IMG/VR virus record: IMGVR_UViG_2740892229_000012
Origin: a virus
Taxonomy: Duplodnaviria; Heunggongvirae; Uroviricota; Caudoviricetes
Length of the DNA: 8,918 nucleotides
Direction: 5' to 3' (one strand)
Of this stretch, positions 2-8,918 are shown piece after piece. The notes beneath the pieces are model-generated. The model made no database searches and was not told the origin of the DNA. It saw nothing but the letters and a program-made list of their open reading frames with translations. How positions within the stretch are numbered: the first letter of the stretch is position 1; the number at the start of each line of letters is the position of its first letter. A program made the translations under genes and the position numbers.

Positions 2-592
2 GGCAAAAGTATCACCCCCGATGATGTGCGTCCGATGCTTGAGCAGATGGTGAAAGAGGCCGTAAGCCATATCCCTGCTCCGCGTGATGGTCGTGATTAC
101 GATCCGGAAGTACTGAAGCAGGCGGTTCTGGAGGCGGTGAATGCCCTTCCGGCTCCGCAGGACGGGCGTGATGCCACGGCACTGGAAGTGCTCCCCGCTA
201 TTGACGATCAAAAATCCTTTCCCCGGGGCACGTATGCCACACACCTGGGTGGACTCTGGCGGGCGTATGAAAAAACGCACGGGATGCGGGGATGGGAATG
301 CCTGGTTGACGGGGTGGCGGATATCGACGTCAGCATGACGGATGAGCGGTTGTTCTCTGTGGTGATCCGGCAGAGCAGTGGCCAGTGTACGGAAAAAACA
401 TTTTCCCTGCCGGTGATGCTCTACCGCGGTGTGTTCAGAGCCGGTGAAACCTACCACCCCGGCGATACGGTGACGTGGGGGGGCTCGCTGTGGCACTGCA
501 ACAGTATGACCGGTGATAAACCCGGAGAAGCTCATTCATCAGGCTGGACCCTGGCTGCAAAACGTGGACGGGATGCAGGAGGCGGAAAATGA
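2..592 (+). CDS. Phage head-module protein of unknown function, 5'-truncated at window edge (196 aa visible)
   Basis: Reading frame is open from position 2 to the TGA at 590-592 (ORF track lists the 26..592 part from a GTG). Its stop overlaps the next start as ATGA, so it is co-transcribed with the head-tail joining genes. No family recognised from the translation; contains a tandem 25-aa repeat with motif EAV..(I/L)PAP(R/Q)DGRD. Confidence 0.55.
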   Translation, partial: GKSITPDDVRPMLEQMVKEAVSHIPAPRDGRDYDPEVLKQAVLEAVNALPAPQDGRDATALEVLPAIDDQKSFPRGTYATHLGGLWRAYEKTHGMRGWECLVDGVADIDVSMTDERLFSVVIRQSSGQCTEKTFSLPVMLYRGVFRAGETYHPGDTVTWGGSLWHCNSMTGDKPGEAHSSGWTLAAKRGRDAGGGK

Positions 593-1890: not shown

Positions 1891-2231
1891 CGGAGGCGGA
1901 TTTGTATCCTTATCTGGCGCATCTTGCCGGCGGGCAGGTGTACCCGTATGTGGTCCCCCTGCTGGATGGCAGGCCGTCGGTGGCGCTTCCGTGGGTGGTT
2001 TTCAGCCTGATTTCATCGGTGTCGGCGGACGTGATGGGCGGGCAGGCGGAGTCCTCAGTGTCGGTGCAGATAGACGTTTATGCCGGGACTGTGACGCAGG
2101 CGCGTCAGATACGTCAGGACGCCCGTGAAGCCATAATGCTGCTGGCCCCGGGATCCGTCAGTGAAATGCAGGACTATATTCCGGAAAACCGCTGTTACCG
2201 TGCAACCCTGGAGTTTCAGGTCACGGTGTGA
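1887..2231 (+). CDS. Tail terminator-like protein (DUF3168-type), 114 aa
   Basis: ATG 1887 overlaps the upstream stop. About 114 aa and located immediately upstream of the major tail gene, the canonical tail terminator position (functional analogue of lambda gpU). Family is inferred mainly from position and size. Confidence 0.65.
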   Translation: MTEADLYPYLAHLAGGQVYPYVVPLLDGRPSVALPWVVFSLISSVSADVMGGQAESSVSVQIDVYAGTVTQARQIRQDAREAIMLLAPGSVSEMQDYIPENRCYRATLEFQVTV

Positions 2232-2246
2232 CTTTTTCTTTTTTTT

Positions 2247-2364
2247 CTACAAAACCCATACCCCGCCGCGTGCGGGTTTTTTATTATCAGGAGGCAGAAT
2301 NNNNNNNNNNCTACAAAACCCATACCCCGCCGCGTGCGGGTTTTTTATTATCAGGAGGCAGAAT
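2247..2364. repeat. Scaffold-overlap duplicate: 2247..2300 and 2311..2364 flank N10 gap 2301..2310
   Basis: The 54 bp 'ctacaaaacccataccccgccgcgtgcgggttttttattatcaggaggcagaat' is repeated identically on both sides of the N run. It contains the hairpin, the RBS and the first two bases of the major tail start codon. Confidence 0.9.
2315..2346 (+). terminator. Intrinsic-terminator-like hairpin plus T6 tract upstream of the major tail gene
   Basis: Stem CCCGC (2326-2330) / GCGGG (2336-2340) with loop CGCGT, followed by TTTTTT 2341-2346 and preceded by AAAA 2315-2318. A duplicate copy lies at 2251..2282 (scaffold artefact). SD AGGAGG at 2353-2358 and ATG 2363 follow. Confidence 0.5.
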
Positions 2365-3079
2365 GTCTGCTTTGTATGAACGCTCACAGCTGACGCAGGT
2401 GATGATTTCATCTGCCCCGGCGACTGCTGAAACTATGGATAAGGCGGAATATCTGCGCCTGGACTGCACCATCAAGGAAGTCCAGTTCACCGCCGGTCAG
2501 AAACAGGATATTGATGTGACCACGCTCTGCTCCACAGAGCAGGAGAACATCAACGGTCTGGGGGCGTCGTCCGAGATTTCCATGTCGGGTAATTTTTATC
2601 TGAATCAGGCCCAGAACGCCCTGCGTGATGCCTATGACAATGACACGGTGTATGCGTTTAAGGTGCAGTTTCCGTCCGGTAAGGGCTTTAAGTTCCTGGC
2701 GGAAGTGCGTCAGCACACCTGGTCATCCGGTACCAACGGCGTGGTGGCTGCAACGTTTTCACTTCGCCTGAAGGGTAAACCGGTGTCCTATGTGGTACCG
2801 CTGGCGTTTGTGAAAAATCTGGAGAAGACACTTACCGTGAATACCGGTGCGCTGCTGACAATGTCAGTCAGTGTCAACGGGGGAACGCCGCCTTATAAAT
2901 ACGCCTGGAAGAAGGATGGTCAGCCGGTCGAGGGACAGACTACTGACACTTTCAGTAAAGCCAATGCGCAGTCAGGTGATAAGGGGGCTTATACCTGCAT
3001 GGTAATGGATTCTGCAGAACAGCCGCAGAGCATTACCTCTGATGCGTGTACGGTAACGGTTAATGGTGCGGGCGGATAA
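2363..3079 (+). CDS. Major tail (tail tube) protein with C-terminal Ig-like domain, 238 aa
   Basis: ATG 2363 with AGGAGG at 2353-2358; the ORF-track 283 aa version is an artefactual N-terminal extension across the N gap. Residues ~152-236 (nt ~2816..3070) carry an Ig-like signature: PPYKYAWKKDGQPVEG...GDKGAYTCMV...TVTV. Position between terminator protein and chaperone genes supports major tail identity. Confidence 0.85.
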   Translation: MSALYERSQLTQVMISSAPATAETMDKAEYLRLDCTIKEVQFTAGQKQDIDVTTLCSTEQENINGLGASSEISMSGNFYLNQAQNALRDAYDNDTVYAFKVQFPSGKGFKFLAEVRQHTWSSGTNGVVAATFSLRLKGKPVSYVVPLAFVKNLEKTLTVNTGALLTMSVSVNGGTPPYKYAWKKDGQPVEGQTTDTFSKANAQSGDKGAYTCMVMDSAEQPQSITSDACTVTVNGAGG

Positions 3080-3335
3080 GGCTTATGGCAAAAGATCTGA
3101 AAACACTGGCGCNNNNNNNNNNCACGCCTGGAAGAAGGATGGTCAGCCGGTAGAGGGACAGACTACTGACACTTTCAGTAAAGCCAATACGCAGTCAGGT
3201 GATAAGGGGGCTTATACCTGCGAGGTAACGGATTCTGCAGAACAGCCGCAGAGCATTACCTCTGATGCGTGTACAGTAACGGTTAATGGTGCGGGCGGAT
3301 AAGGCTTATGGCAAAAGATCTGAAAACACTGGCGC
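2901..3335. repeat. Scaffold-overlap duplicate: 2901..3112 and 3124..3335 flank N10 gap 3113..3122
   Basis: Direct duplicate of 212 bp at offset 223 with 6 nucleotide differences. Covers the 3' end of the major tail gene (Ig-like domain) and the start of the chaperone gene. Confidence 0.85.
3123..3302 (+). CDS. Major tail protein, allele B, 3' fragment (Ig-like domain C-terminus), partial
   Basis: In frame from the first base after the N gap to TAA 3300-3302; translation HAWKKDGQPVEGQTTDTFSKANTQSGDKGAYTCEVTDSAEQPQSITSDACTVTVNGAGG differs from 2363..3079 at A->T, M->E and M->T. Confidence 0.7.
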   Translation, partial: HAWKKDGQPVEGQTTDTFSKANTQSGDKGAYTCEVTDSAEQPQSITSDACTVTVNGAGG

Positions 3336-3682
3336 TGGCCAGACTGTCGGGGTTCCGTCATAAAACGGTGAAGGTGCCGGAATGGAGAAATGTCAGCGTG
3401 GTGCTGCGGGAGCCTTCGGCAGAGGCCTGGTATCTGTGGCAGGAAGTGCTCAATGGTGATGGAGAGGATGACGATACCCTGTCGGTGGTGGCGAAAACCC
3501 GCCGTAACCTGGAAGCGGATGTGACGCTGTTCTGCGATGTCCTGTGTGATACTGACCTGCAACGGGTGTTCACTCCGGACGACCGTGAGCAGGTGCTGGC
3601 CGTCTATGGTCCGGTACATGCCCGGTTGCTGCGTCAGGCACTGGAACTGATCGCTGATGCAGAGTCGGCCAGAAAAAAGTAG
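3308..3682 (+). CDS. Tail assembly chaperone (lambda gpG functional analogue), 124 aa
   Basis: ATG 3308 lies 5 nt after the major tail stop; acidic ~124 aa protein directly upstream of the tape measure gene and ending at the slippery heptamer, the conserved chaperone arrangement. A truncated allele-A start copy lies at 3085..3112. Confidence 0.75.
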   Translation: MAKDLKTLALARLSGFRHKTVKVPEWRNVSVVLREPSAEAWYLWQEVLNGDGEDDDTLSVVAKTRRNLEADVTLFCDVLCDTDLQRVFTPDDREQVLAVYGPVHARLLRQALELIADAESARKK

Positions 3683-3987
3683 CCCGCCCGGAAATTCGCT
3701 TTCTGATGCGACTTGCGCTCCGTCTGGGGCGCACCTTATCCGAACTGCGGCACAGCCTGAGTGCGAGCGAGGCGATGATGTGGATGGAGTTCGACAGGGT
3801 ATCCCCGCTGGGTGATGAGCGCGGGGATATCCGTAATGCACAGATCGTGAAAGCGGTTTTCGGGGCACAGGGGATGAATGTTGCACTGAAGGACGCCATG
3901 CTCTGCTGGGGCGAGGATGAGGATAAGCCGGAGGTGGATCCGTTTGCGGCGCTGGAAGACGCGCTGAGCTTCGCAGCACAGTCATGA
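3308..3987 (+). CDS. Tail assembly chaperone GT-like fusion produced by programmed -1 ribosomal frameshift (predicted)
   Basis: The 0-frame ends ...R K K stop at 3680-3682. The -1 frame opens at 3658 (stop at 3655-3657), just upstream of the slippery site, and runs to TGA 3985-3987. The ORF-track entry 3706..3987 has no convincing SD of its own. Confidence 0.65.
3673..3679 (+). promoter_or_regulatory. -1 frameshift slippery heptamer A_AAA_AAG
   Basis: A AAA AAG is read as codons AAA(3674-3676) AAG(3677-3679) in the chaperone frame, immediately before its TAG stop. This is the same heptamer type as the E. coli dnaX frameshift site. Confidence 0.65.
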
Positions 3988-4034: not shown

Positions 4035-7000
4035 ATGGCGACGTTACGTGAACTGATTATCAAAATTTCGGCAAATTCGCAGTCATTCCAGTCGGAGATC
4101 CAGCGGGCTTCCCGTATGGGCAGTGAATATTACCGGACCCTGCAGAATGGCGGGCGTCAGGCCGCTGCGGCAGCCCGGGAGCAGCGACGTGCCCTGGCAG
4201 AACTGAACAGCCAGTTGACGGAAATTCGCGGTTCTGCTGTCGGAATGGCTGGCGCATTTGCCGGTGCCTTTGCCACCGGACACCTGATTTCACTGGCGGA
4301 TGAGTGGAGTTCCGTGAATGCCCGTCTGAAACAGGCGTCGCAGTCATCTGATGAATTTTCGTCATCACAGAAAGTGCTGATGGATATCAGCCAGCGGACA
4401 GGCACCGCATTTTCGGATAATGCGGCCCTGTTTGCCCGCTCAGCCGCCTCAATGCGTGAATATGGTTACAGTGCTGATGATGTGCTTAAGGTGACGGAGG
4501 CCATTTCCACAGGGCTGAAAATCTCCGGTGCCAGTACGGCAGAGGCGGGCTCGGTGATCACCCAGTTCNNNNNNNNNNTTCGGCTGCCTCGATGCGTGAA
4601 TATGGTTACAGTGCTGATGATGTGCTGAAGGTGACGGAGGCCATTTCGACAGGGCTGAAAATCTCCGGTGCCAGTACGGCAGAGGCGGGCTCGGTGATCA
4701 CCCAGTTCAGTCAGGCGCTGGCGCAGGGTGTATTGCGTGGTGAGGAGTTTAATTCGGTCAATGAAAGTGGTGACCGGATCGTACGTGCACTGGCTGCGGG
4801 TATGGGCGTGGCCCGTAAAGATCTGAAGGCAATGGCGGATGACGGAAAACTGACAGCGGATAAAGTGGTCCCCGCGTTAATCAGCCAGCTGGGGATATTA
4901 CGTGATGAATATGCGGCCATGCCGGAAACGGTTTCCAGTAGTATCACGAAGGTGGAAAACGCCTTTATGGCCTGGGTGGGCGGTGCGAATGAGGCCAGCG
5001 GGGTGACGAAAACGCTCTCCGGCGTGCTGAACGGTGTTGCCGGACAGATTGATAATGTGGCAACAGCCGTGGGGGCACTGGTTGCCGTCGGGGTTGCCCG
5101 GTACTTTGGCAATATGGCCTCCGGAGCGATGTCTGCCACGGCAGGACTTGTGACTGCTGCACGTAATGAAGTTGCACTGGCGGAAGCACAGTTCAGGGGA
5201 ACGCAGATTGCCACGGCGCGGGCAAGAGCAGCCGTGTACTGTGCTCAGCAGGCCGTGGCGGCAGCCCGCGGGACGGAGATGCAGATTGCAGCAGAGGCCC
5301 GTCTGGCGGCCACACAGGAACGCCTGAACAGAAATATTGCTGCCAGAAGCGCCGCCCAGAATGCGCTGAACAGTACAACGGCGGTGGGCTCACGTCTGAT
5401 GAGCGGTGCGCTGGGGCTGGTTGGTGGCGTACCCGGACTGGTGATGCTGGGGGCTGCAGCATGGTACACGCTGTACCAGAATCAGGAGCAGGCCAGGGAG
5501 TCTGCGCGCCAGTATGCACTGACGATAGATGAAATCGCGCATAACACGCCGTCAATGTCTTTGCCTGAAGCCTCAGATAATGAAGGACGAACACGGGCGG
5601 CGCTGACAGAGCAGAAGCGGCTGATTGATGAGCAGTCCAGTCGGGTGAAATCCCTGCAGGAACAAATCGCCGGGTATCAGTATGTTCTGGCGAACCCTGG
5701 CTGGACGACCGGTGACGGATTCATGATAAACCATCTGACATCGGTGAAGACCGTAACGGAAGGGCTTGCTCAGGCAACAGAGCAGCTTGCCGTTGAGCAG
5801 TCCCGTCTGGCACAGATGCAGGAAAAAGCGCAGTCCATTCAGGATGTGCTTGCCGGGCTGGAAGACCGTCGTGTGGCGTTAATTCGTCAGCAGGCGGCAG
5901 AGCAGAATAAGGTGTACCAGTCCATGCTGGTTATGAACGGTCAGCATACGGAATTCAACCGTCTGCTGGGGCTGGGTAATGAACTGCTTCAGCAGCGGCA
6001 GGGACTGGTGAATGTGCCGTTACGGCTGCCACAGGCCACTCTGGATGATAAACAGCAGAGTGCCCTGACAAAAACAGAGCGTGAGCTGGCCCTGTCCAGA
6101 CTGAAAGGGGAAGAAAAAGAGCGCGTCCGACTGGGGTATGCGGCGGATGACCTCGGTTTTGTGGGTGATCCGTATCAGGAGGCGAGACAACGTTATATCA
6201 GTAATGCCCTGGAAGCCTGGCGCAATAACGAGGCGAATAAACCCAAATCCCGGGGTGGAAAATCAGAGACGGAAAAAGCGGAAGACAGTTTTTCCCGGCT
6301 GCTGAAGCAGCAGAAAGAGCAACTGGCACTGGCCGGTCAGAACACGGAGCTGGCGAAGCTGAAGTACCAGACAGCGCTGGGTGAACTGAAAACCCTGTCG
6401 GAGATACAGAAGCAGGAACTGCTGCGTAACGCGGCCCTGATTGACCAGCAAAAAATCCGGGAACAGTTGCGATCCCGGGAAGAGACCCTGAAGAATGATA
6501 ATGTGGCTGCGCGTGCATCAAATGAAGCCGAACTGCTGGGGTACGGGCAGGGAGAACGAGCCAGGGAACGCATGCGGGAGTTGCAGCAGATCCGCGACAG
6601 CTTCCGCCAGAAGGATGCGGACCTTCAGTCTCAGTATCAGACCGGGGATATCAGTGAGGATTTTTACAGACAGGCTCTGGCGCAGAATGCACAGTATCTG
6701 AGTGAACGTCTGAAAGAGCAGGAAGCCTTTTATGCCGAATCGGATGTGCAGCGTGCGGACTGGCAGAAAGGGCTGCAGGAGGGATTCAGTAACTGGGTGG
6801 ACAATGCATCCGATTACGCCTCTCAGGCAGCACAGCTGGCAACGGAGGGGATTTCAGGACTGGTGAATAACATCACGGAGATGCTGAACGGAAACAAAGT
6901 GGAATGGCGCAACTGGGCCTCATCCGTACTGCAGGAAATATCAAAAGTTCTTATGAATGCGGCCATTGTCAACGGAATTAAGACGGCGGCAAACGGTATG

Positions 7001-7751: not shown

Positions 7752-8374
7752 TGCAGGATATTCACGAAGAAAGTCTGAACGAGTCGGTTAAGTCAGAGCA
7801 GTCACCGCGGGTGGTGCTCTGGGAAATCGACCTGACGGTGCAGGGCGGTGAGCGGTATTTTTTCTGCAATGAGCTGAATGAAAAAAGGGAGCCGGTGACC
7901 TGGCAGGGGCGGCAATATCAGGCGTACCCGATTGAGGGCAGTGGCTTTGAGATGAACGGAAAGGGCAGCAGTGCCCGCCCGTCGCTGACGGTGTCCAATC
8001 TGTTCGGTCTTGTCACCGGGATGGCGGAGGATTTGCAGAGCCTGGTGGGTGCCACGGTGGTCCGCCGCCGGGTGTATGCGCGTTTTCTGGATGCGGTGAA
8101 CTTTGTGGCAGGCAATCCGGAGGCCGACCCGGAGCAGGAGCTGACTGACCGGTGGGTGGTGGAGCAGATGTCATCGCTGACGGCCATGACGGCCTCGTTT
8201 GTGCTGGCCACACCGACCGAGACGGACGGGGCGCTGTTTCCCGGTCGCATCATGCTGGCGAACACCTGTATGTGGACCTACCGCTCTGATGAGTGTGGTT
8301 ACACGGGCGGGGCTGTGGCGGATGAGTTCGATAAACCCACCACCGATATCCGTAAGGACAGATGCAGCAAGTGC
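7751..8374 (+). CDS. L: Minor tail protein L (lambda gpL homologue), 3'-truncated by scaffold gap (208 codons present)
   Basis: ATG 7751 overlaps the M stop (TGATG). The translation from MQDIHEESLNE... (VVLWEIDLT, GERYFFCNE, VTWQGRQYQ, ANTC.WTYR, ECGY, KCSKC) is recognisably lambda L-like. The ORF-track start at 7724 is an upstream extension not supported by the homologue N-terminus. Gene runs into the N10 gap at 8375..8384. Confidence 0.9.
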
Positions 8375-8918
8375 NNNNNNNNNNAATATTCACGAAGAAA
8401 GCCTGAACGAGTCGGTTAAATCAGAGCAGTCACCGCGGGTGGTGCTCTGGGAAATTGACCTGACGGTGCAGGGCGGTGAGCGGTATTTTTTCTGTAATGA
8501 GCTGAATGAAAAAGGGGAGGCGGTCACCTGGCAGGGGCGGCAATATCAGGTATACCCGATTGACGGCAGCGGTTTTGAGATGAACGGGAAGGGCAGCAGT
8601 GCCAGACCGTCGCTGACGGTGTCCAATCTGTTTGGTCTGGTCACCGGGATGGCGGAGGACCTGCAGAGTCTGGTGGGGGCCACGGTGGTCCGCCGCCGGG
8701 TGTATGCCCGTTTTCTGGATGCGGTGAATTTTGTGGCGGGCAATCCGGAAGCGGACCCGGAGCAGGAGCTGAGCGACCGCTGGGTGGTGGAGCAGATGTC
8801 AGAGCTGACGGCCATGACAGCCTCGTTTGTGCTGGCAACACCGACGGAGACGGACGGAGCGCTGTTTCCCGGTCGCATCATGCTGGCGAACACCTGTATG
8901 TGGGATTACCGGGGAGAT
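7757..8918. repeat. Scaffold-overlap duplicate: 7757..8290 and 8385..8918 flank N10 gap 8375..8384
   Basis: 534 bp after the gap replays the L gene from codon 3 onward at offset 628, with roughly 5-7% nucleotide divergence and several amino-acid substitutions. Confidence 0.85.
8385..8918 (+). CDS. L: Minor tail protein L, allele B (divergent second copy), internal fragment truncated at both ends
   Basis: Open in frame from 8385 to the window end (178 codons); translation NIHEESLNESVKSEQSPRVVLWEIDLTVQGGERYFFCNELNEKGEAV... parallels 7751..8290 with substitutions such as R->G, P->A, A->V, E->D, T->S, S->E and WTYRSD->WDYRGD. Confidence 0.8.

Follow-up and report, generated by a model that had tools for sequence, protein, structure and literature searches.

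Organization of the Tail Locus

The window, that is, the whole stretch of 8,918 nucleotides that was analyzed, contains tail-module genes only. These are arranged in the order tail completion, tube, chaperone G/T, tape measure, M, and L, and the same order is found in three annotated loci (L084, L085, and L086). The features in and around the tube gene are listed below by position in the window.

2326..2349, + strand: terminator-like hairpin (CCCGCCGCGTGCGGG) with a T run after it, immediately 5′ of the tail tube gene
2363..3079, + strand: gene for the major tail (tube) subunit, 238 codons and a stop codon, HK97 gp12/BP-4795 ORF64 family
2363..2782, + strand: tube-forming module, codons 1–140, last residues LKGKP; Pfam Phage_tail_2 and Phage_TTP_11
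2783–2797, + strand: linker, codons 141–145
2798..3076, + strand: C-terminal Ig-like (I-set/Ig_2/Ig_3) decoration domain, codons 146–238; Pfam matches and pLDDT >90
2929..3093, + strand: mosaic block of ~165 nt, codon 189 through the stop codon and the spacer into the first chaperone codons
3113..3122, no strand: 10-N scaffold gap between pieces 3 and 4
3123..3335, + strand: start of the next contig, repeating 2900–3112; second, BP-4795-type Ig copy (codons 180–238) and chaperone start
3308..3682, + strand: tail assembly chaperone G, complete copy, right of the gap
1034–1043, 2301–2310, 3113–3122, 4569–4578, and 8375–8384: all 10-N gaps of the window

The major tail gene begins with the ATG at 2363, stops at 3077–3079, and encodes 238 amino acids in one uninterrupted open reading frame. 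It is located between the gene for the tail completion protein and those for chaperones G/GT, 5′ of the tape measure gene. The hairpin at 2326–2349 is repeated at 2262–2285 because the contigs overlap at the second gap, and HK106 has an annotated rho-independent terminator in the corresponding position. The left-hand copy of the chaperone G gene starts at 3085 and is interrupted by the gap. At its 3′ end, the complete copy has the slippery run A AAA AAG (3673–3679), and the T-frame open reading frame (3706–3987) lies in the –1 frame.

The window protein is matched by the PHROG 158 "major tail protein" family with an E value of 1.7e-117, and its homologues are annotated as "major tail subunit" in E. 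coli genomes. The N-terminal part scores 25.4 bits against Pfam Phage_tail_2 (cut-off 23.8). The tube structures of lambda gpV and YDC107 were found as Foldseek matches of the tube module, whose model is strand–helix–strand in pattern, with low confidence over residues 45–62. The protein is identified from its sequence as a siphovirus tail tube protein of the HK97 gp12/BP-4795 ORF64 family.

Identity and Fold of the C-Terminal Domain

Residues 149–233 were matched by three Pfam immunoglobulin families above their cut-offs: Ig_2 (E 5.4e-9, 36.6 bits vs a cut-off of 27), Ig_3 (33.6 bits vs 30), and I-set (29.0 bits vs 23.7). Membership in Big_2, the family of T5 pb6 and of the C-terminal domain of lambda gpV (gpV-C), was rejected; Big_2 is absent from the 10 Pfam families with E ≤1 for this protein. 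PHROG Hoc-like decoration families also match the C-terminal part. The sequence matches of the Ig module in the PDB are 9ncf, 9c2d, 8zvi, and 5lxk, which are phage Ig-domain tail or decoration proteins, and the phmmer matches to phage Ig proteins have E values from 3.6e-15 to 3e-35.

An AlphaFold2 model of the tail protein was obtained using 45 homologues. The pLDDT is 91–96 over residues 150–230, and the pattern is all-beta; as a monomer, the model cannot give the orientation of the domain on the assembled tube. In Foldseek searches, phage decoration proteins (Moo19, N4, and T5 pb10) align with the Ig part at an rmsd of 1.2–1.6 Å, and eukaryotic I-set/C2 domains, including the Ig domains of titin, Dscam, and MALT1, match it as well. 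An earlier note on this DNA had placed an Ig-like domain at the C-terminus of the major tail protein and had proposed a profile search, with Big_2 and I-set as candidate families, and a structure prediction. The domain and its location in the protein are borne out by the Pfam scores above threshold and by a model with pLDDT >90. Of the two candidate families, I-set was recovered and Big_2 was not, and the predicted structure contains the Ig-like fold.

Residues W182, D206, G208, Y210, and C212 are nearly invariant among the 45 homologues and comprise the C-strand tryptophan and the D-x-G-x-Y-x-C motif, which leads into strand F and extends within it. Further near-invariant framework residues are P177, Y178, K184, D216, and S226. 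The canonical disulfide pair between strands B and F is absent from this domain; strand B (LLTMSVSV) is without cysteine, and the only cysteines are C212 (strand F) and C229 (strand G). The B–F disulfide is common yet not obligatory in the Ig superfamily, and many I-set domains, for example, those of titin, lack the pair.

The open reading frame of 2363–3079 is continuous, and a frameshift-appended Ig domain of the SPP1 gp17.1* type was rejected. Since there is a single continuous frame, the Ig-like domain is expected on every subunit. Relatives that consist of the tube part only are 83% identical over residues 1–140, end at 147 amino acids, the chaperone gene following after 9 nt, and share the same gene context; because they exist, the Ig module is dispensable in evolution. 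By sequence comparison, the Ig-like domain is a modular add-on fused in frame C-terminal to the tube part.

Contig Structure of the Window and the Second Copy

The window is composed of six discontinuous pieces joined at the 10-N runs. At all five gaps, the start of the right piece duplicates the end of the left piece, imperfectly overall. The overlaps at gaps 1–5 are 160, 54, 213, 129, and 526 bases long and contain 4, 0, 7, 5, and 38 mismatches, respectively. One complete O157:H7 prophage (L084, NZ_AP018488.1) was used as the reference for the identity of each piece. Pieces 2 and 3 are 99.8–99.9% identical to this prophage, and pieces 1, 4, 5, and 6 are only 95.8–97.6% identical. Among 5,426 complete E. 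coli genomes, 1,245 contain related tail modules; a single genome has up to 8 copies, and the copies number ~2,900 in all. Because the identities of the pieces to the reference differ and tail modules occur in multiple copies per genome, the window is evidently a scaffold whose contigs derive from two or more related lambdoid prophages. The best explanation for the type of source is an HK97-like or Stx-phage-like lambdoid prophage of an enterohemorrhagic-type E. coli.

The 213 nt at 2900–3112 and 3123–3335 differ by 7 bases in 6 codons. From the left to the right copy, the changes are Y180H, A202T, M213E (2 nt), and M215T, with V189 and T230 silent, so that four of the six codons change the amino acid. 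The second copy carries H180, T202, E213, and T215 and ends with the stop codon at 3300–3302. In the earlier note, three of five differing codons had been counted as nonsynonymous. A202T, M213E, and M215T are correct, whereas the count is not; Y180H, in the codon that opens the right-hand piece (CAC vs TAC), was overlooked.

The left copy has exact matches in three loci (L084, L001, and L002) and the right copy in 23 independent ones, phage BP-4795 among them. Five of the IMG/VR source genomes gave two loci each; four of these five pairs have different alleles, and three pairs combine both of the major allele classes described below. The nonidentical overlaps across the gaps, the differing affinities of the pieces, and the exact matches elsewhere are the reasons for which the second copy is assigned as the tail gene of a different, paralogous prophage with a BP-4795-type allele. 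The "second allele" of the earlier note is accordingly a contig overlap and not an allele of this locus. Apparent alleles past the N gaps of this window are to be read as overlaps between paralogous EHEC prophage contigs and not as polymorphism at one locus.

Amino Acid Variation in the Tube and Ig-like Domains

Within the window, all five codon differences in the tape measure overlap are silent, as the earlier note had reported. The contrast of the Ig overlap with the tape measure overlap is not significant (Fisher p = 0.06), and against all other overlaps pooled, where 8 of 38 differing codons are nonsynonymous, p = 0.04. A larger set, for which 80 of 318 matching viral contigs were analyzed, comprises 60 distinct alleles. 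In this set, the amino acid varies at 35 of 93 codons in the Ig domain (146–238) and at 14 of 145 in the tube part (1–145), with p = 4e-7, and the concentration of variation in the Ig domain that had been claimed from the window is confirmed. The ratio of nonsynonymous to synonymous-only variable codons is 35/23 in the Ig domain and 14/42 in the tube (p = 1.6e-4).

For the same 60 alleles, mean dN is 0.0088 in the tube and 0.070 in the Ig domain, and mean dS is 0.082 and 0.34, respectively. The resulting dN/dS of the Ig domain (0.21) is merely about twofold higher than that of the tube (0.11) because dS rises too. In the deeper family, represented by an alignment of 43 sequences, the identity to the window protein is 75% for the tube (residues 1–140) and 49% for the Ig domain. 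Entropy in this alignment alternates between inward and outward positions along strands B, C, and F, as in a beta-sandwich with a fixed core and a free surface. Positions 209, 211, and 213 of strand F have high entropy in the outward-facing pattern.

Two allele classes, A (this window) and B, are distinguished by a block at gene bases ~567–731. The nucleotide divergence between the classes is 25–30% in the block and 1–4% in both flanks in a scan of 3.7 kb, and the 14 amino acid differences extend from residue 200 to residue 237. Alleles that are recombinant between the classes were found in four loci (L044, L036, L045, and L052). For codons 189–238 of the block, the comparison of class A with class B gives a dS of ≈2.5 (saturated), a dN of 0.20, and an ω of ≈0.08; for tube codons 1–140, ω is 0.08. 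At this ω, the block and the tube are equally constrained, and it is the linker and the N-terminal half of the Ig domain that show relaxation. Codons 141–188 have an ω of 0.62 between the classes and 0.73 within class A, with few changes per pair. The dN/dS comparison across homologues that the earlier note had proposed yields a higher value for the Ig domain than for the tube, and most of the excess amino acid differences of the Ig domain fall inside the ω ≈0.08 block.

Extension of the block into a larger mosaic over the neighboring genes was rejected; the divergence is 1–4% from ~15 nt into the chaperone gene and before codon ~189. DGR hypermutation was likewise rejected, with a mixed spectrum between classes A and B (all four bases), only two discrete alleles, an ω of ≈0.08, and a window that contains nothing but tail-module genes. 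The best explanation of these sequence comparisons is an ancient, sharply bounded two-allele segment that would be swapped by recombination between prophages otherwise ~98–99% identical.

Within class A, codons 189–238 have an ω of 0.21 vs 0.07 for the tube. The segregating-site pN/pS in class A is 0.47 for the Ig domain vs 0.10 for the tube (Fisher p = 0.0015); in class B, the values are 0.19 and 0.10, and the difference is not significant (p = 0.40). Class A alleles show 11 combinations of states at sites 153, 180, 202, 213, and 215, and position 213 has three states (M, V, and E). The 11 combinations fit recombination among co-resident prophages. An ω of >1 was reached by no partition using NG86 and segregating-site counts; both methods take averages across sites and leave phylogeny and recombination out of account. 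Positive selection over the whole gene is unsupported, all partitions having ω <1.

Comparison with Known Tail Proteins

The closest characterized relative is ORF64 (Q6H9U0/CAD88865), the major tail subunit of BP-4795, a Stx1-converting phage of E. coli O84:H4. It is identical to the window protein at 233 of 238 residues (98%) and has the same order of tail genes. Its Ig domain is exactly that of the right-hand copy over residues 180–238 and the next 33 nt (H180, T202, E213, and T215), and ORF64 differs from the left-hand copy by D26E, Y180H, A202T, M213E, and M215T. The start of ORF64 in the database is 43 codons upstream and spans the terminator hairpin; this start is probably an annotation artifact. 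HK97 gp12 (NP_037706) and its HK106 homologue share the layout of a tube part with a C-terminal I-set Ig domain, an upstream terminator, and a downstream G/GT chaperone. The HK106 major tail subunit, annotated as gp12-like, is 67.9% identical over 98% of the protein; the ~32% of residues that differ are mostly in the Ig part, and its length is 234 vs 238 residues. HK97 gp12 and BP-4795 ORF64 have been tabulated as I-set major tail proteins (PMC9022992, Table 3, drawing on Fraser et al. 2006), and the fusion of tube protein and Ig domain is thus already known for this protein.

Over the full length, lambda gpV (PDB 7t4f, 8iyd, and 8iyk; a further gpV entry is 6P3E) is the best match in structure, with a Foldseek E value of 2e-8. 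Both proteins have a tube domain and an in-frame C-terminal Ig-like domain, which in gpV is exposed on the tube. The overall rmsd is 14 Å because the relative orientation of the domains in the model differs. The sequence identity is only 15–16%, and gpV-C is a Big_2 domain, whereas the window domain is I-set/Ig_2/Ig_3. The analogy to lambda gpV drawn in the earlier note therefore holds for the architecture and the probable role and fails for the family.

The Ig module itself is homologous to modules in T4 Hoc, the C-terminal domain of T5 pb10 (5lxk), Moo19 (9d7z), 9ncf, and 9c2d. The identity to the T5 pb10 domain is 39%, and the rmsd to Moo19 chain 9d7z_K is 1.2 Å. In the Hoc/pb10-type proteins, the module is found on capsid, neck, and other tail proteins, often in tandem, whereas the window has a single copy on the tube subunit. 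In SPP1 gp17.1*, an FN3 domain is appended to the C-terminus of the tube protein via a programmed frameshift and is not required for tube formation (PMC8718954); the window protein differs in having a continuous open reading frame and an I-set fold family instead of FN3. Ig-like domains are common on tail tubes (~70% of the tube proteins in the clusters of enterobacterial siphophages carry them; PMC9022992), and the window adds no new kind of element.

Proposed Function and Alternative Explanations

The observations are accounted for together, with a probability of roughly 0.85, by the following explanation. Residues 1–140 form the tube, and residues ~146–238 are an I-set-type Ig-like domain fused in frame, one per subunit. 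By analogy with lambda gpV, T5 pb6, and YSD1, this domain is predicted to project outside the tube, where it would serve in adhesion or decoration as a dispensable module that binds multivalently and with low affinity. The partial copy at 3123–3302 is the overlapping end of the next contig, derived from a different, paralogous prophage. The variation has two sources. One is the ~165-nt block, with two ancient alleles exchanged by recombination under strong purifying selection. The other is weaker constraint at codons 141–188 and at the solvent-facing sites 153, 180, 202, 213, and 215, whose states would be reshuffled among co-resident prophages. The ligands of the domain may be cell-surface or mucosal carbohydrates, to which it would adhere weakly and multivalently, in analogy to other tail-tube Ig domains. 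An adhesion role for such domains was proposed by Fraser et al. 2006, as summarized in two reviews that both call the function still unclear (PMC8718954 and PMC9022992).

The differences between the two copies could also be attributed to sequencing or assembly errors at contig ends that carry no biological information. The scaffold is of low quality, with five N gaps and redundant ends, and the whole of piece 3 has no exact match among the fetched loci, its best identity in complete genomes being 99.9%. However, both copies have exact matches elsewhere, three for the left and 23 for the right, and every varying position is a common polymorphism in the family; errors are an extremely improbable source of the differences and were rejected. 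If the differences are real, Y180H, A202T, M213E, and M215T could be adaptive, with positive selection diversifying the Ig domain so that it tracks, for instance, surface glycans of the host or mucosa or evades a defense. This proposal would accommodate the four of six nonsynonymous codons, the class A pN/pS excess, the ω of 0.62–0.73 at codons 141–188, the three states of site 213, the 11 combinations at five sites, and the variable outward-facing positions 209, 211, and 213. It is nevertheless improbable, since all partitions have ω <1 and the block with the most amino acid differences has an ω of ≈0.08 with saturated dS. Moreover, the class B excess and the in-window contrast with the tape measure are not significant, and recombination among co-resident prophages explains the combinations equally well. 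Because ω is never >1, the pattern in the Ig domain is assigned to weaker constraint together with mosaic exchange and not to demonstrated positive selection, although positive selection may act at a few sites such as 213. The suggestion in the earlier note that the exposed domain is under different selection from the tube core is upheld in the sense of weaker purifying selection and mosaicism; as positive selection, it is not. The Ig domain is indeed more variable, mostly through an ancient recombining block and relaxed constraint and not through demonstrated adaptive diversification.

Instead of being an adhesin, the Ig domain could be mainly structural, stabilizing or spacing the tube through contacts with neighboring subunits, with the variation representing neutral drift on noncontact surfaces. 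In lambda, gpV-C makes a small contact with a loop on the neighboring subunit, and removal of the Ig domain lowers the activity 100-fold (PMC8718954); because of this loss, some weight is retained for a structural role. The near-invariance of the 10 framework residues from P177 to S226 and the strong constraint on both ancient alleles (ω 0.08) are also compatible with it. On the other hand, relatives with an 83% identical tube module have no Ig domain, and the domains of T5, YSD1, and SPP1 are loosely protruding or dispensable (PMC8718954). The entropy profile has no conserved surface positions other than K184 and D216, which may be structural. A mainly structural domain is thus considered unlikely, with somewhat more weight than diversifying selection, and adhesion or decoration is the preferred role.

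The two-allele block could in addition be a balanced cassette, in which co-resident prophages would differ in binding specificity (e.g., for mucosal or bacterial glycans) or in which mixing of subunits would be limited when several prophages are induced in one cell. This idea is speculative and is given slightly less credence than diversifying selection. The grounds cited for it are the saturated dS, the 1–4% divergence of the flanks, the co-occurrence in single genomes, and the strong purifying selection on both alleles. The only mildly new detail of the locus is this sharply bounded, anciently diverged two-allele block in the Ig domain, and the two alleles would provide a convenient natural pair for asking if tail-tube Ig domains bind specifically.

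Contig gaps and scaffold structure

The contig ends flanking the 10-N gaps overlap at all five positions, and the overlapping copies are non-identical. The gaps and the lengths of the overlaps are as follows.

1034-1043, 10-N gap, overlap of 160 nt
2301-2310, 10-N gap, overlap of 54 nt
3113-3122, 10-N gap, overlap of 213 nt
4569-4578, 10-N gap, overlap of 129 nt
8375-8384, 10-N gap, overlap of 526 nt

Each piece was compared with one complete prophage, the O157:H7 locus L084, and the identities of adjoining pieces are unequal (99.8-99.9% versus 95.8-97.6%). The window is a chimeric scaffold built from paralogous prophages. Differences between "alleles" across a gap are therefore to be read as differences between one prophage and another. 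The last overlap (7758-8283 versus 8386-8911) is the most diverged of the five. Its two copies are 92.8% identical, differing at 38 of 526 nt, and these differences lead to seven amino acid changes in minor tail protein L. Despite this divergence, pieces 5 and 6 are 96.3% and 97.6% identical to L084, respectively.

Organization of the tail genes

The features surrounding the tail tube and chaperone genes are listed below.

2262-2285, duplicate of the hairpin at 2326-2349
2326-2349, GC-rich hairpin followed by a T run, between the tail completion and tail tube genes
3673-3679, slippery run A AAA AAG at the 3' end of chaperone gene G, directly before the stop codon
3706-3987, T-like open reading frame in the -1 frame

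A rho-independent terminator is annotated in phage HK106 at the position equivalent to the hairpin at 2326-2349. This hairpin is read across by the 283-codon GTG open reading frame (2228-3079) and by the 281-aa annotation of ORF64 from BP-4795. The starts of both reading frames are probably over-extended. The slippery run together with the T-like open reading frame has the layout expected of a canonical G/GT programmed -1 frameshift, as predicted from sequence.

Variation in the Ig-like domain

In the related loci L081, L082, and L083, the tube protein is 147 aa in length (gene at 3001-3444 in L081 and L082) and lacks the Ig domain, and the tail module otherwise matches. In L081 and L082, the T gene is separated from the tape measure gene by an additional 111-aa gene with a weak Zn-ribbon match; the window has no counterpart of this gene. 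Two homologues in the protein family alignment A1, P0097 and P0118 (242 aa; 55-56% identical), align normally from the tube part into the beginning of the Ig domain. The sequence that follows (columns ~207-265) is unrelated and Pro/Ala/Leu-rich and ends in ...NGAPGNRR, as if frameshifted inside the Ig domain. The altered region would reflect either a sequencing error or a tolerated loss of the domain.

Match to tandem repeats of L084 at the start of the window

26-592, + strand, open reading frame with a repeated PAPxDGRD-type motif

Positions 1-126 of the window match five tandem units of ~162 bp in L084 (4298-5050), where the repeat region is either unannotated or labelled "frameshifted portal". 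The product of the open reading frame may be a repeat-containing, head-associated protein of variable copy number.
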